Shown: positions 22,047 to 49,561 of the stretch, piece by piece
Layout: each line of letters starts with the position of its first letter
Position numbering within the stretch: position 1 is the stretch's first letter
Origin: a phage
Direction: 5' to 3' (one strand)
Assembly: GCA_026683435.1 (NCBI GenBank)
Contig: GCA_026683435.1_4866.1
Length of the DNA: 64,000 nt
Notes under the pieces: model-generated
Told to the model about the DNA's origin: nothing
Seen by the model: only the letters and a program-made list of their open reading frames with translations
Database searches by the model: none
Program-made: the position numbers and the translations under genes

Positions 22047-22081
22047 GATAGATAATATCTGTCTGAGTTCTTTTTGAGATG
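22047..22081. promoter_or_regulatory. conserved intergenic element, copy A
   Basis: GATAGATAATATCTGTCTGAGTTCTTTTTGAGATG; aligns with copies at 31167, 40259, 49531. Confidence 0.5.
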
Positions 22082-31166: not shown

Positions 31167-31201
31167 TAGATAATATCTATCTCAGATTACTTTAAGAGAT
31201 G
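31167..31201. promoter_or_regulatory. conserved intergenic element, copy B
   Basis: TAGATAATATCTATCTCAGATTACTTTAAGAGATG; overlaps stop codon of upstream minus gene. Confidence 0.5.
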
Positions 31202-34162: not shown

Positions 34163-34221
34163 TTCAACTCTCCACGAGATTATATATCACACTATTGACT
34201 ATTAACGTAAAAAAGGAAATC

Positions 34222-34245
34222 CCCTCTTACCCGAAGGTAAGAGGG
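34222..34245 (-). terminator. intrinsic terminator (minus strand)
   Basis: hairpin ccctcttacc-cgaa-ggtaagaggg, T-run on minus strand. Confidence 0.65.
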
Positions 34246-34250
34246 AGTTT

Positions 34251-34730
34251 TCATTGCACAAGGCAACTACTTTTGTGCCGTTCGTAGGCACGATTAAAAG
34301 ACTCTCTGTCTTCGCGATAGCTGCGAATGAGAGACTTAATCTGTCGTGACAAATCACGACTAATGTCTTGAGGGCTACGAGAACCAGGGTCGAGATATAT
34401 CCCGGAGGGTATACCATGAAGAGTGGGGCGAATAAACTCTTCACAAAGCGGTGCGGTCATCGGGGTGTGCCACCCTTTAGCTTCTGCATAGTTGTTTACT
34501 GACTTAGCGTACAGATAAACGTAATAAGCATAAGCGTTCACATCCGCAACAAACATTTTCCCTGCCAGCTTTTTCGCCTCAGGACTGTTCCCACCGTTAT
34601 ATACTGGTGGGTGTTCTAAAGGACGAAAAGGCCAATCTCCGGTTGAGGAGTAATCTGGGTCTACGTGACGGATGACCCCAGGGCATCCTGTCAACAATAG
34701 CACCAGTATCGCCACCAAAAATAACTTCAT
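34251..34730 (-). CDS. lipoprotein (candidate outer-membrane partner of upstream gene)
   Basis: N-terminus MKLFLVAILVLLLTGC has signal peptide with lipobox LTGC; 159 aa. Confidence 0.75.
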   Translation of the reverse strand: MKLFLVAILVLLLTGCPGVIRHVDPDYSSTGDWPFRPLEHPPVYNGGNSPEAKKLAGKMFVADVNAYAYYVYLYAKSVNNYAEAKGWHTPMTAPLCEEFIRPTLHGIPSGIYLDPGSRSPQDISRDLSRQIKSLIRSYREDRESFNRAYERHKSSCLVQ

Positions 34731-34739
34731 GTATGCTCC

Positions 34740-35255
34740 TCATGGATTATTAAGCGTACTGATAATCTCCTGTCGGAAATCGTTTGCCGCCTGCGACCCC
34801 ACTGGGCGAGAAGCTGCCTGGTGTTTCTTGGCAGGCGGGCTAGACGGATTTAACGGTGCCTGTGGTGTTACCGGCTTGAGTTCTTCAGGCGGAACCGCGG
34901 CCCCAGTGCCTGTCCCTGTTGGAGATTTGGTACCATCATATGGCGATCGAGAACCCAGGCATGTGAAGAGACGATCGTACAGCTTATTGTTCTCCACTTC
35001 GCCATGATCGGACTTCTCTTTTAGCTCCTTATAGGATATCTCCAGATACTGAGTACGCGATTGGACGCTAACCAGTGTGTGGTATTGAACAATGTAGGCA
35101 TATGAGACAAATGCAGAGAACGCGATCAGTGCCACTATCACTAGTGTCACTATTTTCCCGGCTCGTGTTACTTTCTCCCCCTCGCCCGGTTTAAATGCTT
35201 CCCACAGAATCTGTAAGAATGGAAGCAGTTTGAAAACTGATGCTATCATGCTCAC
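34740..35255 (-). CDS. inner-membrane-anchored protein with short coiled-coil and Pro/Ser/Thr-rich C-terminus
   Basis: 171-aa ORF; single hydrophobic helix IVTLVIVALIAFSAFVSYAYIV near N-terminus. Confidence 0.7.
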   Translation of the reverse strand: MSMIASVFKLLPFLQILWEAFKPGEGEKVTRAGKIVTLVIVALIAFSAFVSYAYIVQYHTLVSVQSRTQYLEISYKELKEKSDHGEVENNKLYDRLFTCLGSRSPYDGTKSPTGTGTGAAVPPEELKPVTPQAPLNPSSPPAKKHQAASRPVGSQAANDFRQEIISTLNNP

Positions 35256-38539: not shown

Positions 38540-38806
38540 CTAGTTACGGTCGGAATTAAAGACGTGCCAGGTACTACGCCAGCGGAAGAATCGGGTTATG
38601 AAACCACGTATGTGGTAGCCTGAGAACAACATCCAGATCGTGAGAAAAAGCTGCGCCCATGGAGTGGTGAGTTCCATCAAATGCGCGACTATCGCACCAA
38701 CTATCAACATTACCGTGGAGAATAACAAACTATACATCATCGGAATGTTGTGGCTATAGCGTTTCTCCATCCAGTAGAGAAAATTTATTAAACGTTTCAC
38801 GAACAC
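38540..38806 (-). CDS. small membrane protein with two predicted helices (holin-like topology)
   Basis: 88-aa ORF; two hydrophobic stretches and basic C-terminus. Confidence 0.5.
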   Translation of the reverse strand: MFVKRLINFLYWMEKRYSHNIPMMYSLLFSTVMLIVGAIVAHLMELTTPWAQLFLTIWMLFSGYHIRGFITRFFRWRSTWHVFNSDRN

Positions 38807-38857: not shown

Positions 38858-39451
38858 TTACGCATCGGCCTCAAAGAACGGCTGGTTTGGTACCACTGCG
38901 TATTCGAGCACGAACAGATGTTCTGGGGCATCTTCTGCTCGCCACAGTTTGTGGCACGTTGCCAGTTTTTCCAGGATGGTCAACCAGCTGAGCTGGCAGA
39001 AAGCACGGTCGCCGAAGAACAGTTTCTGCAGTGCAATCGACACATCCATATACGCCTGTTTGAAGTCGAGTTCTTTATCGTAACCCGCCGACTGTCGCCA
39101 CGTCAGCACGAAACCTGCTTCGGTTTCGTTAATTGCTGGACGTAAACCACAAATCCACATCAGTGCCAGATTAACGTTCCAGTCGAATTCGATACCTTCG
39201 TCTTCGTCATCACCAAACGCCGCGTTTAACGCATCGTAGAAACCGTGGTTCTCTGCGAACCATTCGCCGTACTCAACGTAGACCGGTGCTTCGACAGCTT
39301 CCCCATCGACTTCACCGATAGGACGCTCTACATAGTTCGGGTTGGTTTGAACGTGTTCCGCACCCGCGCGAATTAATTCGTAGACATCTTTGGCGGTGAT
39401 TTGTGCGGCTGTTTTAAGACCTGGATACCAGGGGCGTGTTACGAGTGTCAA
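38858..39451 (-). CDS. hypothetical protein
   Basis: 197-aa ORF, 4-nt overlap with upstream gene. Confidence 0.65.
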   Translation of the reverse strand: MTLVTRPWYPGLKTAAQITAKDVYELIRAGAEHVQTNPNYVERPIGEVDGEAVEAPVYVEYGEWFAENHGFYDALNAAFGDDEDEGIEFDWNVNLALMWICGLRPAINETEAGFVLTWRQSAGYDKELDFKQAYMDVSIALQKLFFGDRAFCQLSWLTILEKLATCHKLWRAEDAPEHLFVLEYAVVPNQPFFEADA

Positions 39452-40170
39452 AGCAATGCTCCTTTCATGATAGTGTTATTTGCCAGTAGTGTACCGGCCG
39501 CAGGTGATATTTTGGTGTACAGCGTATCCCAGATTTTCTGAAGCTCAGCGACGCGTTGGTCGCGGTCTTCCTTCGCAAAAGCAAGCTGACGTGTTTCAGC
39601 TTTCGGTGGCGTCATTTTCGCACCGTAGAATGCTGCGTCTTTTCGGTAGCTGTCCATCCAGCGTTTCCCGACCGATGATTTCTTTTTAATCATCGCAACA
39701 GCAGCGCTCTCACCGAAGCGGTAGCCTAATGCAATTTCGGCTGTGCTCGGCTTGCGTTTGAGTTGTTTTGTCAGATGATCCTCGATGTGTTTCATGTAAA
39801 CAGCAGCAAGCTGTACAGCATATTTCGGTTTATTAAGGTCTGCGTTCTTTGGGATGTTAAGTTGTTTCCCATACAGACGTATCATGGAGCGTTTAGTACC
39901 TGTCGTCATTTGGACAACACTACTAGCACTGCTCGATTTATTCTTACCCACGTTTTTATTAAAACGGGATTCGCGGTAAATGGTGGTCGCAAGCATCCCG
40001 GCATGTACACCTTGCTTTTGAGATGCAGAGACGATGAGAGGTTTAATCTCATTGAACTGGTCCTGGATAAGGACAAATTCTTTTTGATGTTTGTTACTGG
40101 TGGACTGGTAAGAAGCGTTGCTGTTGAATGTGGTCACTGCTACCAGAAGAAATAAAATGGTGCGAAACAT
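39448..40170 (-). CDS. secreted or signal-anchored lytic transglycosylase-like protein (candidate endolysin)
   Basis: N-terminal hydrophobic signal MFRTILFLLVAVTTF; motif ESRFN…SSSASSVVQMTTGT parallels the SLT motif of the giant protein. Confidence 0.65.
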   Translation of the reverse strand: MFRTILFLLVAVTTFNSNASYQSTSNKHQKEFVLIQDQFNEIKPLIVSASQKQGVHAGMLATTIYRESRFNKNVGKNKSSSASSVVQMTTGTKRSMIRLYGKQLNIPKNADLNKPKYAVQLAAVYMKHIEDHLTKQLKRKPSTAEIALGYRFGESAAVAMIKKKSSVGKRWMDSYRKDAAFYGAKMTPPKAETRQLAFAKEDRDQRVAELQKIWDTLYTKISPAAGTLLANNTIMKGALL

Positions 40171-40258: not shown

Positions 40259-40291
40259 GATGATAATATCTATTTGAAACTTTTTGGGATG
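40259..40291. promoter_or_regulatory. conserved intergenic element, copy C
   Basis: GATGATAATATCTATTTGAAACTTTTTGGGATG; overlaps stop codon of macro-domain gene. Confidence 0.45.
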
Positions 40292-40770
40292 ATTTTCTCT
40301 GCTTCCCTCAGCAGGGTGTCTGGTAAATAGAATCGATAAGTCTGCTCCGTGTGCTGTAGTCGTTTCTGTAAGTGTATAAAGATTTCCAATCGCTCATGGT
40401 AACGTAACCAGCCGTTAGCCATCCCTAGGGGCGGTATCGCAATCCCTCCTTCTAAGTCTTCCCCTAGTCGCGCCAGCGCATCAATGCCGGACGTGACATA
40501 GTAAATCTGCGATTTATAGCGAAAATGGGTTTTAGTAGGAAGGAGTATTACCCCTTCCTCAGGATAACAATAGACCTCACCAATAACGATTTGCTCTTTA
40601 CGGCATTTCTGGCGATAGTCATTATAAAGCGATGGGAAGCGTTCTCGGCACGCCAAAGCAATGCCCCTTCCCATTGCACCAACACAGTTAACTGTAACGA
40701 CCTTGAAGCGCTCAGGCGCGTTAAACAGGTCGTGGGAGATAATAGCCTCGTCGATCAGTTCTAGTGGCAT
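40270..40770 (-). CDS. macro-domain protein (putative ADP-ribose binding/processing)
   Basis: Motifs VTVNCVGAMGRGIALACRERFP and GIAIPPLGMANG resemble the two macro-domain signatures; 166 aa. Confidence 0.65.
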   Translation of the reverse strand: MPLELIDEAIISHDLFNAPERFKVVTVNCVGAMGRGIALACRERFPSLYNDYRQKCRKEQIVIGEVYCYPEEGVILLPTKTHFRYKSQIYYVTSGIDALARLGEDLEGGIAIPPLGMANGWLRYHERLEIFIHLQKRLQHTEQTYRFYLPDTLLREAEKIIPKSFK

Positions 40771-41929: not shown

Positions 41930-42171
41930 TTTAATTCCTCAAAAACTATAGACGCCGGCAGCGTACCAAGCGCTGCTTTAATACACGTACTCAGCGGAGT
42001 ATCATCGAACGCAACACGACCGATAGTACCCACGTTGATGTGTTTTGGATTTACGGGTAAGAACTCCTTCGCCCGTTCGTACTCAGCCCAACAGACATCG
42101 GTGTTTAAAGCTGAAAACCCAGGACGGTGAAACATAAATAGCACCCCTCGCGTAAAAAATACCCCACTCAT
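41926..42171 (-). CDS. hypothetical protein
   Basis: 81-aa ORF, 4-nt overlap with downstream gene. Confidence 0.45.
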   Translation of the reverse strand: MSGVFFTRGVLFMFHRPGFSALNTDVCWAEYERAKEFLPVNPKHINVGTIGRVAFDDTPLSTCIKAALGTLPASIVFEELK

Positions 42172-42206
42172 AGTGAGGCATAATCGTAAGGAGTGCTAAA
42201 ACAGGA

Positions 42207-42722
42207 CTATGCTACCGCAGTCCTTAAAGGATCATCTGCTTCCGCAGGAACCTGCTTCGTAAATTCAAGCCATTGTCCGTCTGTAGAGACGGTCTTGTCA
42301 AAACCGCGAGCGGTAAAGAACGCAATACCAGCTTCCTGGCAAGCGTATATTCCCCCATGCGCACTGGTGAACTTTTCATTCACATCAAGCGCATCAAAAA
42401 TCTGCGTCATCGTTTTGCGACGGCGTGCCATTTCGGACACGAACATCGTACGAATCTTCAGAACCCCAGCGATTACGCGATAGAGACAGTAACCAACAGG
42501 GGTACCCCCTTCCAGAGCAACACAAGCACGGTTCCCCGCCAACAGTTTCTCCAGAGTGAGGTTCGGAATCTCACCTTTTTCGATATGGAGTATGGTACGT
42601 TGGTGGTTCAGAAATTTATAATGCAGCCCCAACAGCTGTTTATTTTGTGCTTCCGTTAAATCTGAAGATGAGGAAAGAATGACAATTTCGGCCATGAGCT
42701 GAATTCCTAAGTGAGCTTTCAC
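42207..42722 (-). CDS. GNAT-like acetyltransferase (tentative)
   Basis: 171-aa ORF; GTG start at 42722 or ATG at 42695; C-terminal YACQEAGIAFFTARGF resembles a GNAT motif. Confidence 0.55.
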   Translation of the reverse strand: MKAHLGIQLMAEIVILSSSSDLTEAQNKQLLGLHYKFLNHQRTILHIEKGEIPNLTLEKLLAGNRACVALEGGTPVGYCLYRVIAGVLKIRTMFVSEMARRRKTMTQIFDALDVNEKFTSAHGGIYACQEAGIAFFTARGFDKTVSTDGQWLEFTKQVPAEADDPLRTAVA

Positions 42723-42763
42723 CTGCGATGAAAGCGAGTAACGAAGAATTGCGTTTGTGTTTT

Positions 42764-42787
42764 CTTAAGTTTACCGGTAAACTTAAG
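42764..42787. promoter_or_regulatory. perfect 24-bp palindrome (candidate operator)
   Basis: CTTAAGTTTACCGGTAAACTTAAG, about 40 nt upstream of the GNAT-like gene. Confidence 0.6.
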
Positions 42788-42841
42788 CGGTGTATACCGC
42801 TGCAGGTAAAGACCAGTTCTCTATCGGAACCGTGTCTTTGA

Positions 42842-43120
42842 TCAACAACGTCGTTGAAAACGCTGCGATGCTGAGGTAACCTTCCGTCGCCACATTCGCT
42901 CATGGCGCTTCTGATTACCACGCCAGTCTTCCCCGACTGTACGTGAAACTGCAAAATCATCCGGCCCGCAGACTTCCGCGATGTCTGCTAGAAGGTTCTT
43001 TGAAGACCCTATAGCCATCCCCGCGCTCGAAAGAACGATACGCCGGGTTGGCACGGCCGCCCCTGAACCCACGACCACGGGATCAGAGACTGTTTCACTG
43101 TTACATGATACTTCTCCCAC
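42842..43120 (-). CDS. hypothetical Gly/Ser-rich protein
   Basis: 92-aa ORF with GTG start and RBS aggaggg. Confidence 0.45.
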   Translation of the reverse strand: MGEVSCNSETVSDPVVVGSGAAVPTRRIVLSSAGMAIGSSKNLLADIAEVCGPDDFAVSRTVGEDWRGNQKRHERMWRRKVTSASQRFQRRC

Positions 43121-43138
43121 TTCGTAATTACCCTCCTG

Positions 43139-43246
43139 TTAAAACCAACCTTGCGTCAATGCAAGGATTGCGCCTAGGGCGTATGCGCCTGCTCCTAGTA
43201 CCAGACTACAGATGATACACCCAACCCACTTCACTAAAATAACCAT
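43139..43246 (-). CDS. small hydrophobic peptide (35 aa)
   Basis: Manual translation MVILVKWVGCIICSLVLGAGAYALGAILALTQGWF; below ORF-track cutoff; weak RBS. Confidence 0.3.
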   Translation of the reverse strand: MVILVKWVGCIICSLVLGAGAYALGAILALTQGWF

Positions 43247-43365
43247 GATGCCAGAAATGCTCCGATTGCACAGATGATAATCGTAATGCCAAGGTCTGTC
43301 CAGGTGGCACCATCATACGCACCTGTTGCAATCATCGCCGCGTTGACACTATTCACGACTGTCAT
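43234..43365 (-). CDS. small hydrophobic peptide (43 aa)
   Basis: Manual translation MTVVNSVNAAMIATGAYDGATWTDLGITIIICAIGAFLASWLF; RBS aaggga. Confidence 0.35.
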   Translation of the reverse strand: MTVVNSVNAAMIATGAYDGATWTDLGITIIICAIGAFLASWLF

Positions 43366-43552
43366 AAGCCGGGTCCCTTAAACGCGGGGGCTTGCTCCAC
43401 AGATTACCGAAGTAAACCCCTTCTAAGAACACCAAAACAACTAAGCCCCAAAAGGCAGGCGTAGCGCGAGACATGAAAATACCGAGTAGCACCACAGTGT
43501 GCATTACCACAACTGCCCAAAACTTTAAACGACCAGGTTTACGTCTTGCCAT
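43349..43552 (-). CDS. small membrane protein (67 aa)
   Basis: ORF track 43349..43597 (GTG start); trimmed to ATG 43552 (MARRKPGRLKFWAVVVMHTVVLLGIF…). Confidence 0.45.
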   Translation of the reverse strand: MARRKPGRLKFWAVVVMHTVVLLGIFMSRATPAFWGLVVLVFLEGVYFGNLWSKPPRLRDPAYDSRE

Positions 43553-43643
43553 GGAATGCCCATCCTTTCGTGCGGATAATCCAACCCCAGGCACCACGAA
43601 TCAACCACAGTGCAATACCGGTTAATACGATACCTTCAATCAT
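43539..43643 (-). CDS. small hydrophobic peptide (34 aa)
   Basis: Manual translation MIEGIVLTGIALWLIRGAWGWIIRTKGWAFHGKT; RBS ggagaa; ATGA overlap with upstream stop. Confidence 0.4.
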   Translation of the reverse strand: MIEGIVLTGIALWLIRGAWGWIIRTKGWAFHGKT

Positions 43644-43831
43644 GTCCGTTCTCCTATATCTCGCCACTCACAACGCGTGTCGAACAGACGTTCTTTAAGA
43701 GCAGCAGCTAAATAAACGACCGCAGCGATAACCACTACGGTTGCACAAAAGGAGAGGTACAGTACCATCACAACAAACTGAAGGAACTGAAAACCCCACC
43801 AAGCCCATAAGCGCCAACCGTTATGATGCAT
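43640..43831 (-). CDS. small membrane protein (63 aa)
   Basis: ORF track; hydrophobic helix FQFLQFVVMVLYLSFCATVVVIAAVVYLAAAL. Confidence 0.5.
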   Translation of the reverse strand: MHHNGWRLWAWWGFQFLQFVVMVLYLSFCATVVVIAAVVYLAAALKERLFDTRCEWRDIGERT

Positions 43832-46331
43832 ATTTGATTATTACCCCTTCGTTATAAACCGGTGGAAGCGTTACACCTTCTGGCTCCACGACACAGTAGG
43901 TGGCTTCGTTAAGTTTAGAATGAACTTCCGCTTCATGCGAAACGACCAGCAATTGAGAAAACTCTCCCGACAACGCCAACGATTTAATGAAGTTGACCAG
44001 TCGATTTTTGTGTTCTTCATCCATGCCTTCAGAGGGTTCATCCAATAACAAAGGATAGTTTTGTAAACCAAGCGCTTTATACGCTGTTAAACGAAACATC
44101 ATGTTAAAGATAATACGCTGTGCCTTCGAACCTTTCTTCACATCCGGCACCAGTTCTTCATGGTCTTTTAATCGCACCGGGAAAGTATAATCCAAATCCC
44201 CGTCGGTTAGATCGCATGGAATAACCTGCATCGGATATGCCCATACCGTTTCGATATACCGATTCATTAAATCCATGATGCGGGTAATCGCAGCATAAAA
44301 GTAACGACGCAATAATCCCTTTTCGGGTGAGACGGCATTGATAATCAATCTGGCATGATGGTGTTCTTTGAGCAACTCAGCTTGCTCTTTTTCCAATTCC
44401 GCTAAACGTGCAATAGCCCCTTCCATTTGACGAAACCGTTCACGAGCGGAAGTGTACGCATCGAGCTTCGCTTCGCGTCGGTTTAACAACTCGCGAACCA
44501 CGACGTTGTTAACGGAGATGTTCATTTCCGATACCAGATGTTCGTAGCCTTTTTGGAAACGTTCGATTGCTTCTTTGGTTTGTTGCAGTTGGGTGGTTTC
44601 GCGTTCCAGCACATTGGCTTGTCTGCGGTATTCTATCAGTCGACGGTTAGCCCCGTCCAGTTGTGAACGGATATGTTCAATTTTCTGGCTCAGCGCACCA
44701 TCAACGTTACCTACTGCGGCAACAGCCTCTTGCCATTCCCGTTCCGCTGTTGCAAGCTTCTCCGATTGACGCAGATACATCATGGCCGAATCTAGCTCTT
44801 CAGTAAAGGCACGTGCAATGGCACCGTAACGATCCCGCGCCATGGTGAAGATATCCAGCTCCTGCAGTTTACGGAAAAACAAACCGACAACGGGATGGTT
44901 GGAATACGACATGACGATTTCGCGAATCGTACGTAAGCTACGGACGTCCTCTTCAATCTCTTTGCGGTCACGCAAAAGACTATCCATTTCGTCTTTCAGC
45001 TGCTTCTTCCAACCTTCATTATCGTTGATGGCCTTTTCAATTTCAGGTAACGACTTACGAATCCCAGGACGGAAACGGTGGTTACACTGTGGACAATCAA
45101 CTTCTGCAGTTTCTAAGAAGTGTTGACGGTCGTGGTATAAACCGTGTAGCACATTCTCACAACGTTGCAGCTTTTCAGATAGACCCGCAGAGGTTAAATC
45201 CATACCCTGTAAACGCTTCTCTAACGCTCCCAGGCGCTCTGTTGTCTTTAACTGGTCCAGATGCATGGACAACGGTAAATTCCAGTTACAGGCATCGTTT
45301 AACGCGTTCTGAATGCTATCCACATCGATGCGGGTGCCTTCAAACAGAGCCGGGAACATCCAGTTCTGTTGGAACGTTGCCAGTTCCTGTTTTAAGCTGT
45401 CGATTGTTTGTTTTAGACCGGTATGGTTGCGCATCAGATATGCTTGACGCGACTCCTCATCCAGTAGCTGTGACAACTCTTTATTGTACATGTTGCATTC
45501 AGTTTCAGCAGAGGCCGCTTGCTCACGCCAGGCAACCACACGACTTTGAAACTCGTTAATCAGTTCGTCAGAAGGCAGAACGCCATAACGTTCCATAATG
45601 AGTTTTACAGCCGGTTGCAACGAGGCAATGCGTTTCCGGATACTATCAACCGAAACGGCGTTATCTAAACCGGGTCTCGCTTCAATGGTGCGGTTTAGTT
45701 CCTGAAGCTCAACGTCCAGTTCTTTCAAACGAACTTCTAAACGTGCACGATCTTCTTCATCGTCCACCACGCGCATTTTTGCCTCACCGATTTTACGGCC
45801 GGTGTGCTCAATGGCCCCACTTAAACTGGAAGCGAGTTTACGCAGACGACGATAACAACCAACGACGTACGTCAGATCAGATTCTGACATTAACGTAAAC
45901 CATTTACGACGAACTTCAGTGGTAGCGTCTGTTAATAAGGTTTCACCGTTAATTAACTCTTTGATTTCTTTGGTGATCCCGGTTAACTGTTCCACCATGG
46001 AGTTGTAAACTTTGGCGTTTACCGAGTCTACGACGGAGACACCTTTAGTGATGTTGAAGATACTACAAGACAGAGAAGAGCCACGACGCAGGACTTCAAA
46101 CTTAAGACGGTCGTCCCCAACTAACGCGTAGTTAGTGTAGGAACCACCTTCACGGAATTCTGATTTTGCTGGAGCTAAGGGGAGAAAAACAGATAGGAGG
46201 CTTGTTTTACCGCAGCCGTTGCCACCGAGGATGATGGTAACGGTTGACTTAAGGGTGAAATCAAACGTTTCGATTTCATGTAACCCCATGCCGGTAAATC
46301 CTTTCAAAATGATACGTTCGACCTTGAGCAT
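43821..46331 (-). CDS. Rad50/SbcC-like recombination/repair ATPase
   Basis: N-terminal Walker A GGNGCGKTSLL; central CxxC zinc hook (CPQCNHRF) within coiled-coil-like sequence; C-terminal Walker B LLLDEPSEGMD; 836 aa. Confidence 0.85.
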   Translation of the reverse strand: MLKVERIILKGFTGMGLHEIETFDFTLKSTVTIILGGNGCGKTSLLSVFLPLAPAKSEFREGGSYTNYALVGDDRLKFEVLRRGSSLSCSIFNITKGVSVVDSVNAKVYNSMVEQLTGITKEIKELINGETLLTDATTEVRRKWFTLMSESDLTYVVGCYRRLRKLASSLSGAIEHTGRKIGEAKMRVVDDEEDRARLEVRLKELDVELQELNRTIEARPGLDNAVSVDSIRKRIASLQPAVKLIMERYGVLPSDELINEFQSRVVAWREQAASAETECNMYNKELSQLLDEESRQAYLMRNHTGLKQTIDSLKQELATFQQNWMFPALFEGTRIDVDSIQNALNDACNWNLPLSMHLDQLKTTERLGALEKRLQGMDLTSAGLSEKLQRCENVLHGLYHDRQHFLETAEVDCPQCNHRFRPGIRKSLPEIEKAINDNEGWKKQLKDEMDSLLRDRKEIEEDVRSLRTIREIVMSYSNHPVVGLFFRKLQELDIFTMARDRYGAIARAFTEELDSAMMYLRQSEKLATAEREWQEAVAAVGNVDGALSQKIEHIRSQLDGANRRLIEYRRQANVLERETTQLQQTKEAIERFQKGYEHLVSEMNISVNNVVVRELLNRREAKLDAYTSARERFRQMEGAIARLAELEKEQAELLKEHHHARLIINAVSPEKGLLRRYFYAAITRIMDLMNRYIETVWAYPMQVIPCDLTDGDLDYTFPVRLKDHEELVPDVKKGSKAQRIIFNMMFRLTAYKALGLQNYPLLLDEPSEGMDEEHKNRLVNFIKSLALSGEFSQLLVVSHEAEVHSKLNEATYCVVEPEGVTLPPVYNEGVIIKYAS

Positions 46332-46398
46332 GTTTGCCTTCTAATGAGAAAGTATTAGTCGTTCATATCCAAAAGGTCATGCGTAAAAAAGAAGAAAT

Positions 46399-46416
46399 GG
46401 AACCCCGAAGGGTTCC
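46399..46416 (-). terminator. intrinsic terminator (minus strand)
   Basis: hairpin ggaaccc-cgaa-gggttcc with T-run on minus strand. Confidence 0.55.
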
Positions 46417-46427
46417 AGAGAGGAGAG

Positions 46428-47054
46428 TTATTGCGGAATAAACTTACGGTGTCCGAGTGATTCCCAAAAACTATCGGTGCGCTCTTTGGTTAATTCATAC
46501 CACGCCCGCCCGGCATCAGAATCGACAACCTTTAACGTTTCAGTAAGCAGGAATTTGAACAGTTCGGCACTACGACCGGGTGCCACGCCGTCGAGATATA
46601 TCGGGATTAAATAACCGGTTTTGATTTCTTCGTACGCTTGCGATTGGTGCTGGCCAACAACCCAGGCATCAGCAGCGCTACCGACCAAAGTGGTGTTTAC
46701 AGTCAACTCATCAGAAATCCAGTTAACTGTATCAGCCATTATTGAATCGCCATTGACGTAGAAGAAAACCAAACGCTTAGGTTGCTCCACCGAACCAGCC
46801 AAATCTAATGCGGTGGTTCCGGTAAAGATCGTATTGTTAGGGTTACGTTCTGCAATAGGTAGAGCAAACCACGCTTCTAGCTGTTCCCAGCTACGCGGCA
46901 GTGCTTCTTTAAACCACTTCACCAATCGCGGGTATTCCAGAAACCCTTCTACCTCTTCTTCCATCAGATTGATACGCAGTTTGGTATCCCGACGATTCGC
47001 TTTCTGACACGTCACCATGTCGTCGATGAAACGAATCAGGGTAATCTCGTTCAT
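46428..47054 (-). CDS. hypothetical protein
   Basis: 208-aa ORF. Confidence 0.65.
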   Translation of the reverse strand: MNEITLIRFIDDMVTCQKANRRDTKLRINLMEEEVEGFLEYPRLVKWFKEALPRSWEQLEAWFALPIAERNPNNTIFTGTTALDLAGSVEQPKRLVFFYVNGDSIMADTVNWISDELTVNTTLVGSAADAWVVGQHQSQAYEEIKTGYLIPIYLDGVAPGRSAELFKFLLTETLKVVDSDAGRAWYELTKERTDSFWESLGHRKFIPQ

Positions 47055-47709: not shown

Positions 47710-47738
47710 GTTATAACATCTGTCTGAAAACTTTTCGG
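47710..47738. promoter_or_regulatory. partial copy of conserved element (copy E)
   Basis: GTTATAACATCTGTCTGAAAACTTTTCGG; shares ATCTGTCTGA with copy A. Confidence 0.3.
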
Positions 47739-48135: not shown

Positions 48136-48546
48136 TTAAAAGTCGAGTTTATTGATGCCCACGTTTTTCTTAATCGTAGGGTCGTACATGATAACCGTCA
48201 GGGCATTGTCGCCTGGGTCGCGAGTAAACTCGGCAACGGCTTCACCACTGCAGGCTTGGTTATCATTATAGTTCATGGATTCGGCTTGCCCGGTTGCCAT
48301 GTTAATGACCCCGTATTCAGGGTCGCCACATGCGACACCGCCCATCGTTTTCACTAACAGATAACGGTTGTTATCGGACATCGCAACGATCTGGCAGCTA
48401 CCGCCTTGTACGTCAGAGTTCTGGCACCAGAACTCTCCGCCGTATTCGTGATCGTTAACAACTTTTGGTAACTCGATACTTCCAGCACGAGCGAAGAAGC
48501 TAATGGCCAGAGTAGCAAGTAAAACTGGTAATAAAAAATGTTTCAT
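48136..48546 (-). CDS. small secreted Cys-containing protein, paralog S2
   Basis: 136-aa ORF; signal peptide MKHFLLPVLLATLAISFFARA; motif LLVKTMGGVACGDPEYG. Confidence 0.7.
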   Translation of the reverse strand: MKHFLLPVLLATLAISFFARAGSIELPKVVNDHEYGGEFWCQNSDVQGGSCQIVAMSDNNRYLLVKTMGGVACGDPEYGVINMATGQAESMNYNDNQACSGEAVAEFTRDPGDNALTVIMYDPTIKKNVGINKLDF

Positions 48547-48568
48547 AATAGCACCTCAATTTTTTGAG

Positions 48569-49060
48569 TTATTCTGAATAGTCGATTGTTTTGATGGTTT
48601 CCATACCGTAGTACATAGCGATGGAGGCCAGAGTTTTGGTATCCGGTCGCTGTACAAAACCGGCCCTGAAATCTTTGCTGCAAATTTTCTCCACTGATAG
48701 TTCATCACGATTAGGGATAAGCCATAACGCGTCACCGTTGTGACGGTCGACTGCACCCCACCAACCTCCTGGGCAATCTTTATCGCCCGGACGGTGTACG
48801 ATAGCGACACGACCGTTGAAGGATATGTCAACTACACGACACTGTTTCTTAAGCAGCTTACGCGCATTGCACCAGAACGGCTTATCATTAAGATTGATGG
48901 TGCGGGTATATGCTGGAATGCTGCCGTTAATACTGCCCTGGAACCCGCTGAATTCGTCAGCGCGTGCCTTAGAAATCCGTAGCCCAACAACAACTGCCAT
49001 CAACAGCACAGTAAAAAGCACCACTTTGGCCAAGTGGCGATTAACGTTATTGCATTTCAT
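48569..49060 (-). CDS. small secreted Cys-containing protein, paralog S3
   Basis: ORF track 48569..49105; start moved to ATG 49060 (MKCNNV) with RBS ggagat; motif AIVHRPGDKDCPGGWWG. Confidence 0.65.
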   Translation of the reverse strand: MKCNNVNRHLAKVVLFTVLLMAVVVGLRISKARADEFSGFQGSINGSIPAYTRTINLNDKPFWCNARKLLKKQCRVVDISFNGRVAIVHRPGDKDCPGGWWGAVDRHNGDALWLIPNRDELSVEKICSKDFRAGFVQRPDTKTLASIAMYYGMETIKTIDYSE

Positions 49061-49448
49061 TTTTGATATCTCCACGAATGAGGGTGATGCGACCAACGAG
49101 CACATCGTTGTGATAAAAACTCACAGCAACCAGATCTGGTAATTCCAACGGTGATACGCTGACCGAAGTGACTTTTGGTTGATCGCACGATATGTCGATT
49201 AACCGCTGATACATTTTCAATTTCTTATCAGCGATAACCAGCCCTGTGCAGTTCTTACCGTCCGTCAGTCTGTAGATTTGTAACTGTTCGACCTCACGCA
49301 TCAGTTCCGGTTTTTCATTCGGCGCAATGCCATAATCCGAATCAGCTGATGTGTATTCAGTCACGTCTGGCTTATCGAAAGCATAAGTTGCTGCAATGCC
49401 ACATGCGGCCAGAACTACTACTGCTTGTAAGAACTTCTTGATAGTCAT
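49047..49448 (-). CDS. small lipoprotein or secreted protein S4
   Basis: 133-aa ORF; N-terminus MTIKKFLQAVVVLAACG with lipobox-like LAAC. Confidence 0.65.
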   Translation of the reverse strand: MTIKKFLQAVVVLAACGIAATYAFDKPDVTEYTSADSDYGIAPNEKPELMREVEQLQIYRLTDGKNCTGLVIADKKLKMYQRLIDISCDQPKVTSVSVSPLELPDLVAVSFYHNDVLVGRITLIRGDIKNEMQ

Positions 49449-49502: not shown

Positions 49503-49530
49503 AGTTGAGTTAATCTCTTAACTCTCACCT

Positions 49531-49561
49531 AGGTAATATATATCTGAGATATTTTACAATG
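49531..49561. promoter_or_regulatory. conserved intergenic element, copy D
   Basis: AGGTAATATATATCTGAGATATTTTACAATG; begins at stop codon of upstream minus gene. Confidence 0.45.

Follow-up and report, generated by a model that had tools for sequence, protein, structure and literature searches.

A conserved string of five small hydrophobic-protein genes behind the SbcC gene of SPN3US-like jumbo phages, and its possible role at the host envelope

Several kinds of small membrane proteins have been described in bacteria and in their phages. Small inner-membrane regulators and exclusion proteins, such as Imm and Sp of phage T4 and the bacterial AcrZ-, MgrB- and CydX-type proteins, are of about 30–80 aa, carry one or two transmembrane (TM) helices, are embedded in operons, are restricted to given lineages and act through the binding of larger membrane proteins. 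Class II holins (e.g., S68 of phage 21) are about 70 aa long and possess two TM helices, with both ends in the cytoplasm. Another case is found next to a nuclease gene. In phage T4, gp47.1 is a 46-aa predicted membrane protein, whose gene lies upstream of gene 47, the Mre11 (SbcD) gene, and overlaps it by 4 nt (NC_000866); the tethering role proposed for gp47.1 is itself only a suggestion. By analogy with gp47.1, Thomas et al. (2016) raised the possibility that gp187 of phage SPN3US could be a nuclease tether (PMC5105663). In the literature on holins and small membrane proteins of SPN3US-like phages, we found just this one remark on gp187.

The gene of gp187 has its counterpart in the window that we analysed, i.e., the whole stretch of 64,000 nucleotides, which comes from a Seoulvirus (an SPN3US-like nucleus-forming jumbo phage) and shows 99.3% identity with Escherichia phage EC001. 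On the minus strand, between positions 43139 and 43831, five consecutive short ORFs of 63, 34, 67, 43 and 35 aa (named m1 to m5) directly follow an SbcC/Rad50-like gene, at the coordinates and with the sizes that a previous sequence-only reading had given. The string starts with this SbcC gene (43821–46331, minus strand), which encodes an 836-aa SMC ATPase, is annotated as SMC/SbcC in EC001 and SPN3US, and is the equivalent of SPN3US gp186, essential in that phage (PMC5105663). Two of the short ORFs had been described as coupled to the preceding gene by an overlap; in fact, we found an overlap at all five starts, ranging from 4 to 17 nt. The ATG of m1 (43640–43831) overlaps the SbcC stop by 11 nt; m2 (43539–43643), whose ATG lies within a 42-aa GTG ORF, overlaps the m1 stop by 4 nt through an ATGA; m3 (43349–43552), whose ATG lies within an 82-aa GTG ORF, overlaps m2 by 14 nt; and m4 (43234–43365) and m5 (43139–43246) overlap their preceding genes by 17 and 13 nt, respectively. 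The ribosome-binding sites announced for most of these genes are only partly there, as partial Shine-Dalgarno-like purine runs, the best being those of m2 (AGGAG, with a spacing of 7 nt) and m3 (AGGA, 10 nt). The string continues on the same strand with p92 (42842–43120; 92 aa, phrog_15402), which uses a GTG start after AGGAGG and has a conserved C-terminal motif, EDWRGNQ...QRR, and then with a GNAT acetyltransferase gene (42207–42695; 162 aa from a conserved ATG, phrog_3810), which is equivalent to SPN3US gp191 and is the last gene of the unit. p92 comes 18 nt after m5 in every genus carrying the array, and the corresponding stretch is annotated in other (wrong) frames in SPN3US and EC001. 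The GNAT homologues of the Wellington-like phages match Pfam Acetyltransf_1.

A single membrane helix had been proposed for each of the five peptides. This does not hold for m3, which has two hydrophobic helices, and m1 carries a hydrophobic stretch of 38 residues, as one long helix. This m1 stretch lies between a basic N-terminus and a charged C-terminal tail, and the AF2 model shows a single long helix (residues 5–49, mean pLDDT 82). In m3, the AF2 model is a hairpin (H8–27 and H32–52, mean pLDDT 71), preceded by a strongly basic N-terminus (MARRKPGRLK) and followed by a charged C-terminal tail (RLRDPAYDSRE); because of the positive-inside rule, both ends of this two-TM hairpin should face the cytoplasm. 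In m2, a TM segment at the N-terminus precedes a tail that is basic and aromatic (W.WIIRTKGWAF). m4 is acidic in its N-terminal half, lacks basic residues altogether and finishes with a TM helix at the extreme C-terminus, and m5 is nearly all hydrophobic, with a single TM helix ending in a conserved ALTQGWF. The Kyte-Doolittle maxima reach 2.3–2.7 for m1, m3, m4 and m5 and are lower for m2, at 1.6–1.7 (42-aa GTG ORF). The ALTQGWF motif is found at the m5 C-terminus in five of the six aligned sequences, which come from four genera (Huxley has SLCMGLF), and the synonymous positions of its codons vary. We rejected a lipoprotein or secreted form of m5, as its WVGC is not conserved: there is no Cys at this place in the SPAsTU, pEa_SNUABM_29 and Asesino orthologues. 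We also discarded the idea that the five peptides are paralogues of each other (cross-scores of 2 bits at most).

These genes are present in public records. m1, m3 and m4 are 95–100% identical to SPN3US gp187, gp188 and gp189, respectively. All five are covered by the SPAsTU annotation (MLDJOKPK_00249–00253), and m1, m3, m4 and m5 by that of EC001 (ACEC001_1870–1895). m2 and m5 are omitted from the SPN3US reference annotation; m2, which is annotated in SPAsTU, SEGD1 and SPFM4, is also unannotated in EC001. The SPN3US, SPAsTU and EC001 orthologues show no structural difference from the genes of the window and carry the labels "hypothetical protein" or "unknown function". The five ORFs are thus already catalogued as hypothetical proteins, and their discovery is a modest and ordinary one.

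Short frames, weak Shine-Dalgarno sequences for some of them and the omission of some of the five in several genome annotations would all be expected of chance ORFs, or of a non-coding spacer that happens to be open. This explanation has practically no chance of being right and we consider it refuted by purifying selection, intact frames and syntenic profile matches. Indeed, reading the ORFs in their named frames gives a pooled pN/pS of 0.36 and no stop, whereas the shifted frames give 1.27 with 52 stops and 1.44 with 27 stops, so that the selection is specific to the frame, and no relative shows in-frame stops. Using SPAsTU and the Erwinia phage pEa_SNUABM_29 (around 69% nucleotide identity) as comparison genomes, we obtained dN/dS values of 0.06–0.41 across the array ORFs where dS could be estimated. 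m2 is under the strongest constraint of the five (0.06–0.12), followed by m3 (0.17), m1 (around 0.3) and m5 (0.21–0.41). For m4, dS is saturated and we give pN (0.18–0.23) and pS (0.76–0.87), i.e., a pN/pS of 0.24–0.28. All five ORFs are open in nine out of nine close genomes. Among these, a single indel was observed, an insertion of 1 nt in EC001 and Lh1B, by which the 11 C-terminal residues of m3 are changed. Gene order is, moreover, kept across four genera. The conservation of the frames between phages, on which the sequence-only reading had made its own case depend, is therefore clear, and its description of real, translated-looking genes for small hydrophobic proteins packed behind a Rad50/SbcC-like gene was borne out. 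We conclude with high confidence that all five ORFs are true genes, and that they encode small hydrophobic proteins which are unrelated to each other and specific to this clade.

The signals around the string delimit a putative transcription unit. On the 5' side of SbcC, a hairpin followed by a T-run (GGAACCC-TTCG-GGGTTCC, 46398–46417, minus strand) would terminate the gene before it and delimit the unit on its 5' side; its stem is maintained in four genera through compensatory changes. The next hairpin terminator is found only past the GNAT gene, where a hairpin with a T-run (42159–42181, minus strand) would form the 3' end of an SbcC-m1..m5-p92-GNAT unit. Terminator-like hairpins within m1 (43741–43719) and at the end of m5 (43166–43149) are located inside coding sequence and were treated as chance; the stem of the m5-end hairpin is lost in pEa_SNUABM_29. 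Just after the 5' hairpin, the 8-mer TGGATATG (46364–46371, minus strand), which occurs once in the window, contains a TATG and is a candidate promoter or transcription start element for the non-virion RNA polymerase. This TATG starts 36 nt 5' of the SbcC ATG and does not vary among the seven sequences compared, which represent four genera. TATG is the late-promoter element of phiKZ (PMC7598289), and the TATG at SbcC can be likened to it by analogy only. On the other hand, the AT-rich early-type motif AGATRTTAT..A, spotted by eye in intergenic regions and then tested, has no copy within 42000–47000; one copy, at 47710–47721, is located 5' of gp184. A search for early promoters among AT-rich 10–12-mers found none occurring five or more times. 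The presence of the TATG element and the lack of the early-type motif suggest that the non-virion RNA polymerase transcribes the unit during the middle or late phase of infection, a temporal class that would be assigned through a 4-nt motif borrowed from phiKZ. A scan for sigma-70 promoters revealed no enrichment (6 found versus 7.0 expected) and is not relevant here because the phage has its own RNA polymerases. Neither Rfam families nor tRNAs were found in the whole window. From this organisation, we infer that the string from SbcC to GNAT is carried by one polycistronic mRNA and that the five peptides are coupled in translation and made in a fixed proportion.

The distribution of the families is narrow. 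Four phage genera have m1, m2 and m5 in an unchanged order, with p92 and GNAT behind them. Profile HMMs recovered the three of them in the same order and on the same strand in phiEaH2, in a metagenomic Asesino-like contig and in five Logan contigs, all of these test loci having been excluded from profile building, and the same search gave zero matches on the opposite strand. m3 is missing in one Seoulvirus, pEa_SNUABM_29, and was not detected by profile HMMs in Wellington-like phages, which have extra peptides in the array, and m4 is limited to Seoulvirus. None of the m1–m5 families occurs in the loci of phiKZ, pVa-21 and Derbicusvirus that we examined, where SbcC is conserved. Four of the five peptides match PHROGs, all without an assigned function, over nearly the whole profile: m1 (phrog_16515, E = 1.2e-28), m2 (phrog_13448, 5.8e-9), m3 (phrog_18173, 3.6e-40) and m4 (phrog_29196, 7.7e-33); for m5, the best PHROG hit is not significant (E = 0.11). 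None of the five belongs to a functional family in Pfam, PHROGs or NCBIfam. Since no family matches any of the pieces, the idea of a larger membrane protein that was split is unsupported. Profile searches of 5.8 billion proteins retrieved 15 homologues of m1 and 16 of m3, all from this phage clade, and nothing for a concatenated m2 + m5 profile. When m2 was searched with phmmer against 1.84 billion representative proteins, just two matches were credible, namely m2 itself and a 36-aa Asesino-like peptide; the third match, P0033, was rejected as a spurious repeat protein. In IMG/VR, we found only four loci, three of which are copies of isolate genomes already considered, the last being a metagenomic Asesino-like contig. 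A comparison with the Pf3 coat protein gave nothing (8 bits at most).

The sequence-only reading had suggested three roles for the array, namely holin/antiholin-like factors, modulators of host membrane proteins, or toxins. In the lysis explanation, m1 and/or m3 would be the holin/antiholin or the lysis-timing regulators of the transglycosylase endolysin gp198 (39448–40170), the shorter peptides being accessory. We regard this as unlikely. In its favour, a hydropathy scan of gp198 reveals no N-terminal TM or SAR segment, so that this endolysin needs a holin, none is annotated in the related genomes examined, and two recent reviews of nucleus-forming phages are silent on holins and spanins. m3 does resemble class II holins by its size (67 aa), its two-helix hairpin, its basic N-terminus and its charged C-terminal tail; yet it matches no such family, does not adjoin the endolysin and is missing in one close relative, pEa_SNUABM_29, where the endolysin region remains. 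A comparison with S68, taken as a lead only, gave nothing (8 bits at most). The holin-type combination of a TM helix and a charged C-terminal tail is also present in m1, whose tail is highly charged, but m2 has just a short basic tail, and m4 and m5 end within or right after the TM helix, without any charged tail. We know of no holin as short as these last three peptides, and no holin family matches any of the five (Pfam and PHROGs at E ≤ 1, NCBIfam at E ≤ 10). The array and the endolysin share a minus-strand gene run with a late-type TATG motif 5' of the unit; however, gp198 lies around 3 kb 3' of the array, seven ORFs and the 42159–42181 hairpin terminator stand in between, the array does not have the usual (though not universal) place of holin genes in a lysis cassette beside endolysin or spanin genes, and its translational coupling is to a nuclease gene of DNA repair. 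Better-placed genes are found near or beyond the endolysin, i.e., gp200, an 88-aa ORF with two TM segments (38540–38806) located around 640 nt downstream of it, and a spanin-like pair (34251–35255). Nothing that we found makes m1–m5 the holin of the phage. The toxin explanation, in which the peptides, as small membrane toxins comparable to type I toxins or to single-gene lysis proteins, would depolarise or kill the host, appears highly improbable. m2, m4 and m5 have the size and hydrophobicity of small pore-forming peptides, but their genes belong to an operon that also contains an essential gene, neither a promoter of their own nor an antisense partner was found, and no toxin family matches in NCBIfam or Pfam. 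Moreover, purifying selection acts on W.WIIRTKGWAF and ALTQGWF, and selection on such specific motifs suggests specific contacts and not a generic membrane damage.

The coupling to SbcC could reflect a functional link with the nuclease rather than mere packing. In this tether explanation, m1 (gp187), perhaps with other peptides, would bind SbcC and hold the nuclease at the inner membrane, as in the suggestion made for T4 gp47.1 with gp46/gp47; in a phage that forms a nucleus, the enzyme could thereby stay outside this compartment and go on acting on the DNA of the host. In four genera, the start of m1 either overlaps the end of SbcC or lies very near it, the spacing going from an overlap of 17 nt to a gap of 3 nt (Wellington), and m1 and gp47.1 are both small hydrophobic proteins whose genes overlap that of a Rad50/Mre11-type nuclease subunit. 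The two cases also differ: the T4 gene precedes an Mre11 gene whereas the peptides of the window follow a Rad50 gene, the single peptide of T4 contrasts with five unrelated ones here, which is more than a tether needs, and m1 does not resemble gp47.1 in sequence. Indeed, gp47.1 (taken from NC_000866) scored no more than 1.3 bits against the five peptide profiles, this value being that of m1, and the best BLASTP match (E = 0.44) spans 7 residues. Small TM ORFs are also present downstream of SbcC in phiKZ and Derbicusvirus, at a distance of up to about 1–2 kb, but the families of the array are absent from both, and from pVa-21, all of which keep SbcC. SbcD is, furthermore, encoded far off, as gp27 (PMC5105663), and the replication and recombination of phage DNA occur inside a protein shell, away from the membrane (PMC13282480). 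We therefore hold a tether to be rather improbable. The same low credence goes to a bolder proposal, in which the core m1-m2-(m3)-m5, in a fixed ratio with SbcC, would be a dedicated membrane complex serving as a holin/antiholin timer or as an SbcCD tether.

Of the three suggested roles, that of modulators of host membrane proteins is the most plausible, by exclusion only. Our preferred reading, to which we give a probability of roughly 35%, is that the array encodes a co-translated inner-membrane accessory module acting on the host envelope, being neither a lysis holin nor a part of the nuclease. The m1–m5 peptides would insert in the host inner membrane, and the conserved core of m1, m2 and m5, usually with m3, would assemble into a small hetero-oligomeric membrane module, a possibility to which only co-occurrence and coupling point. 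This module might bind or perturb an envelope component specific to Enterobacterales hosts, and thereby block superinfection, blunt a membrane-associated defence or adjust the physiology of the membrane over the long infection cycle. The additional peptides of the Wellington-like phages, like m4, would then be lineage-specific add-ons. The families are, consistent with a host interaction, confined to one clade of jumbo phages infecting Enterobacterales; the composition of the array differs between lineages, and m1 and m5 (dN/dS of 0.2–0.4) evolve faster than SbcC (0.08). On the contrary, selection constrains m2 as strongly as SbcC, an uncommon situation for a host-interaction factor of the fast-evolving kind. 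The five peptides share with the Imm, Sp, AcrZ, MgrB and CydX types their size, their one or two TM helices, their place in an operon and their restriction to a lineage; there is no sequence relationship with any of them (NCBIfam, E ≤ 10), and the likeness is one of functional analogy only. The host-envelope explanation is also a broad one, because its target is unspecified.

Small uncharacterised genes are an open question for jumbo phages (2026 review, PMC13282480). Here, the gene map of one such region is cleaned: m2 and m5 are real although missing in the SPN3US reference, and the frame of p92 is corrected. Better-placed lysis candidates are now listed elsewhere in the window. The conserved core of m1, m2 and m5, together with p92 and GNAT, constitutes a target for SPN3US genetics, using the amber-mutant or Cas13 systems. 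If m1 and its neighbours did hold SbcC at the membrane, SbcCD located outside the phage nucleus would destroy host DNA and spare phage DNA; if they were a lysis timer, they would be the missing holin/antiholin timing device of this clade. In either form, a dedicated membrane complex would have a role specific to nucleus-forming jumbo phages of Enterobacterales.

The string of short ORFs lying directly 3' of the SbcC/Rad50-like gene (SbcC, 43821-46331, minus strand) consists of five real protein-coding genes. As the sequence-only reading had described, they are consecutive and encode 63, 34, 67, 43 and 35 aa, i.e., m1 (43640-43831), m2 (43539-43643), m3 (43349-43552), m4 (43234-43365) and m5 (43139-43246), all on the minus strand; m1, m3 and m5 lie in the same reading frame, and m2 and m4 occupy the remaining two. 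Coupling to the upstream stop had been proposed for two of them. In fact, each start lies within the 3' end of the gene before it, with overlaps of 11, 4 (ATGA), 14, 17 and 13 nt from m1 to m5, and coupling is thus more complete than first noted. The RBS-like sequences attributed to most of the ORFs came down to partial Shine-Dalgarno matches, and the array is probably translated largely through coupling.

Compared with SPAsTU and Erwinia phage pEa_SNUABM_29 (~69% nucleotide identity), m1-m5 are almost saturated in synonymous differences (pS 0.51-0.87) and show low levels of non-synonymous ones (pN 0.09-0.37), with dN/dS of 0.06-0.41 wherever dS can be estimated; for m4, dS is saturated and pN/pS is 0.24-0.28. 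The constraint on m2 (dN/dS 0.06-0.12) equals that on SbcC (0.08). Pooled pN/pS in the named frames is 0.36 with zero stops; in the two shifted frames, the same alignments give 1.27 (52 stop codons) and 1.44 (27 stop codons). Across nine close genomes, third codon positions take 53 of the 86 substitutions, and all five ORFs stay open with one exception: in Escherichia phage vB_EcoM_EC001 (EC001) and in Lh1B, a 1-nt insertion at window position 43391 (minus strand) replaces the last 11 aa of m3 by 7 different residues. This insertion, which is absent from the window and from the seven other close genomes, reflects either tolerance of a changed C-terminus or a sequencing error common to both. 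The m2 motif W.WIIRTKGWAF is kept, and so is the m5 C-terminus ALTQGWF; the synonymous positions of the latter's codons vary, therefore the constraint acts on the protein. That the five are chance ORFs is unlikely.

Between 42800 and 44300, the window is 99.3% identical to EC001 and 96-98% identical to Salmonella phage SPN3US (whose plus strand is the minus strand here) and to about 30 other Seoulvirus genomes, a genus of nucleus-forming jumbo phages with 240-kb genomes (PMC13282480). SbcC is the 836-aa SMC ATPase gp186 of SPN3US, found essential with amber mutants (PMC5105663). Using profile HMMs built from six genomes, we scanned all six frames of 26 phage loci, and the frames proved conserved across phages: m1, m2 and m5 occur in four genera, with the same order and strand in Seoulvirus, Erskinevirus (Asesino, phiEaH2), Machinavirus (Huxley) and Wellingtonvirus, always followed by p92 (a 92-aa ORF, 42842-43120, minus strand), then by a GNAT acetyltransferase (42207-42695, minus strand). 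The same arrangement was found in loci outside the training set, i.e., phiEaH2, a metagenomic Asesino-like contig and five Logan contigs (L022-L026). Three genera carry m3, which is missing from pEa_SNUABM_29, and m4 was found only in Seoulvirus among the 26 loci. Wellington-like phages have extra small TM ORFs inside the array, as well as a 128-129-aa protein with a HEAVH (HExxH-like) motif and no Pfam match, between the m1 and m2 homologues (3316-3702 in L007; ~3162-3551 in L024-L026). In Derbicusvirus, Vibrio phage pVa-21 and phiKZ, the HMM scan did not detect any of the array families downstream of SbcC; Derbicusvirus and phiKZ carry other small TM ORFs there.

One membrane helix per ORF had been predicted. 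AF2 models m1 as a single long helix (5-49, mean pLDDT 82), and the prediction fails for m3, whose model (14-sequence alignment, mean pLDDT 71) is a hairpin of two hydrophobic helices, 8-27 and 32-52. Hydropathy maxima reach 2.3-2.7 in m1, m3, m4 and m5, and are lower in m2 (1.6-1.7, measured on its 42-aa GTG ORF). Cross-comparison rejected the five as paralogues of one another. Public annotations and family catalogues already list them as hypothetical proteins: m1, m3 and m4 are gp187, gp188 and gp189 of SPN3US, m5 is also annotated in EC001, m2 in SEGD1 and SPFM4, and all five in SPAsTU. Four of the five match PHROG families of unknown function, and none has a Pfam or NCBIfam match. In a 5.8-billion-protein collection, the m3 and m1 profiles retrieved 16 and 15 proteins, every one of them from this phage clade and lacking a functional name; among 1.84 billion representatives, m2 matched only itself and an Asesino-like peptide.

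Upstream of SbcC, a hairpin followed by a T-run (46398-46417, minus strand) keeps its stem in four genera through compensatory changes. The T-run is followed, at a distance of about 15 nt, by a TATG (in TGGATATG, 46364-46371, minus strand) that begins 36 nt ahead of the SbcC start codon; this TATG is invariant in the four genera and may be likened to the phiKZ late-promoter element (PMC7598289). The next hairpin terminator on this strand comes only after GNAT (42159-42181), therefore SbcC, m1-m5, p92 and GNAT look like one transcription unit. A 'hairpin, T-run, ACG, 12-17 nt, (T/G)ATAT(G/A)' arrangement recurs before operons (46364-46417, 42125-42181 and 34170-34250, minus strand), and the window has four copies of TTTTTTACG, all on its minus strand, versus 1.15 expected. 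Early promoters of jumbo phages have a common AT-rich motif of ~10 nt (PMC7598289). An AGATRTTAT..A-type motif (ACAGATATTATCTA), similar to motifs reported from early (virion-RNAP) promoters in other jumbo phages, lies in several intergenic regions (22049-22062, 31167-31180, 40260-40273, 47710-47721, upstream of gp184, and 49530-49543, minus strand), with 15 matches versus 6.6 expected and 0 of 100 shuffles reaching 15. One copy directly precedes the endolysin gene, which would be unexpected for a lysis gene. The motif is absent from 42000-47000 on the minus strand, therefore the array is probably not early, unless transcripts from the gp184 promoter read through two terminators.

Several neighbouring genes also deserve mention. 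The p92 ORF has a GTG start preceded by AGGAGG and a C-terminal motif, EDWRGNQ...QRR, kept in four genera; SPN3US (gp190) and EC001 annotate other frames at 42842-43120, so these are probably mis-annotations. Within Seoulvirus, nucleotide conservation of its 3' half is far above the surroundings and may reflect an extra constraint. A few kb upstream of SbcC, three consecutive ORFs of 133, 178 and 136 aa (48136-49448, minus strand), each with an N-terminal signal-like or TM segment and one with a lipobox-like VVLAAC, look like an exported or envelope protein cluster. Downstream, gp196 (40270-40770, minus strand) has a weak Macro-domain match (E = 2e-4, just under the Pfam cut-off). pVa-21 has the compact order SbcC, hypothetical, Appr-1-p (macro), lytic transglycosylase; the block formed by the mini-genes, p92, GNAT and gp192-195 therefore looks inserted into an older SbcC...macro-endolysin neighbourhood.

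What is solid is that an overlapping string behind SbcC yields five real, clade-restricted small hydrophobic proteins. Tentatively, at about one chance in three (0.35), we propose that they would serve an accessory role in the inner membrane and act on the host envelope, and that m1, m2 and m5 (plus m3) may operate together as a small complex. We favor this because only Enterobacterales-infecting relatives carry the families, membership of the set changes by gain and loss from one lineage to the next, the rate of evolution of m1 and m5 is several times that of SbcC, and no feature links the peptides specifically to lysis or to the nuclease. A control of lysis as holins or antiholins is doubtful: m3 and m1 do have a holin-like build and no holin is annotated in the related genomes examined, but the location of the array and its coupling to SbcC argue against it, as does the fact that one relative has lost m3. 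Moreover, the endolysin gp198, a transglycosylase (39448-40170, minus strand; downstream, with ~3 kb and seven ORFs between it and the array) without an N-terminal hydrophobic segment in the hydropathy scan, is followed ~640 nt downstream by gp200 (38540-38806, minus strand), an 88-aa ORF with two TM helices and no PHROG, Pfam or NCBIfam match, which is a better-placed holin candidate. Further on, gp204 (34740-35255, minus strand; 171 aa, N-terminal TM helix) and gp205 (34251-34730, minus strand; 159 aa, lipoprotein signal MKLFLVAILVLLLTGC, lipobox LLTGC), belonging to PHROGs 8719 and 8165 of unknown function, form a candidate two-component spanin-like pair; like gp200, both are annotated hypothetical. 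Since these exist elsewhere, the array is not needed for the holin slot, although nothing proves that gp200 occupies it.

Less probable still is a role as membrane tether of the SbcCD nuclease. Thomas et al. (2016) noted gp187 as a 63-aa TM protein adjoining SbcC and brought up an earlier proposal of T4 gp47.1 as the membrane anchor of gp46/gp47 (PMC5105663), the only comment on the five peptides in the literature searched. This parallel and the kept overlap or close abutment with SbcC speak for a tether; T4 gp47.1 is an annotated predicted membrane protein of 46 aa whose gene overlaps gene 47 by 4 nt, but it has no similarity to any of m1-m5. Moreover, the peptides are absent from other phages having the same SbcC, and in nucleus-forming phages DNA is replicated within a protein shell (PMC13282480). 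Small membrane toxins, as also suggested, are unlikely. In conclusion, the initial observation holds and concerns real genes; the finding is an ordinary one, whose modest value lies mainly in a corrected gene map of the locus and a shortlist for experiments.
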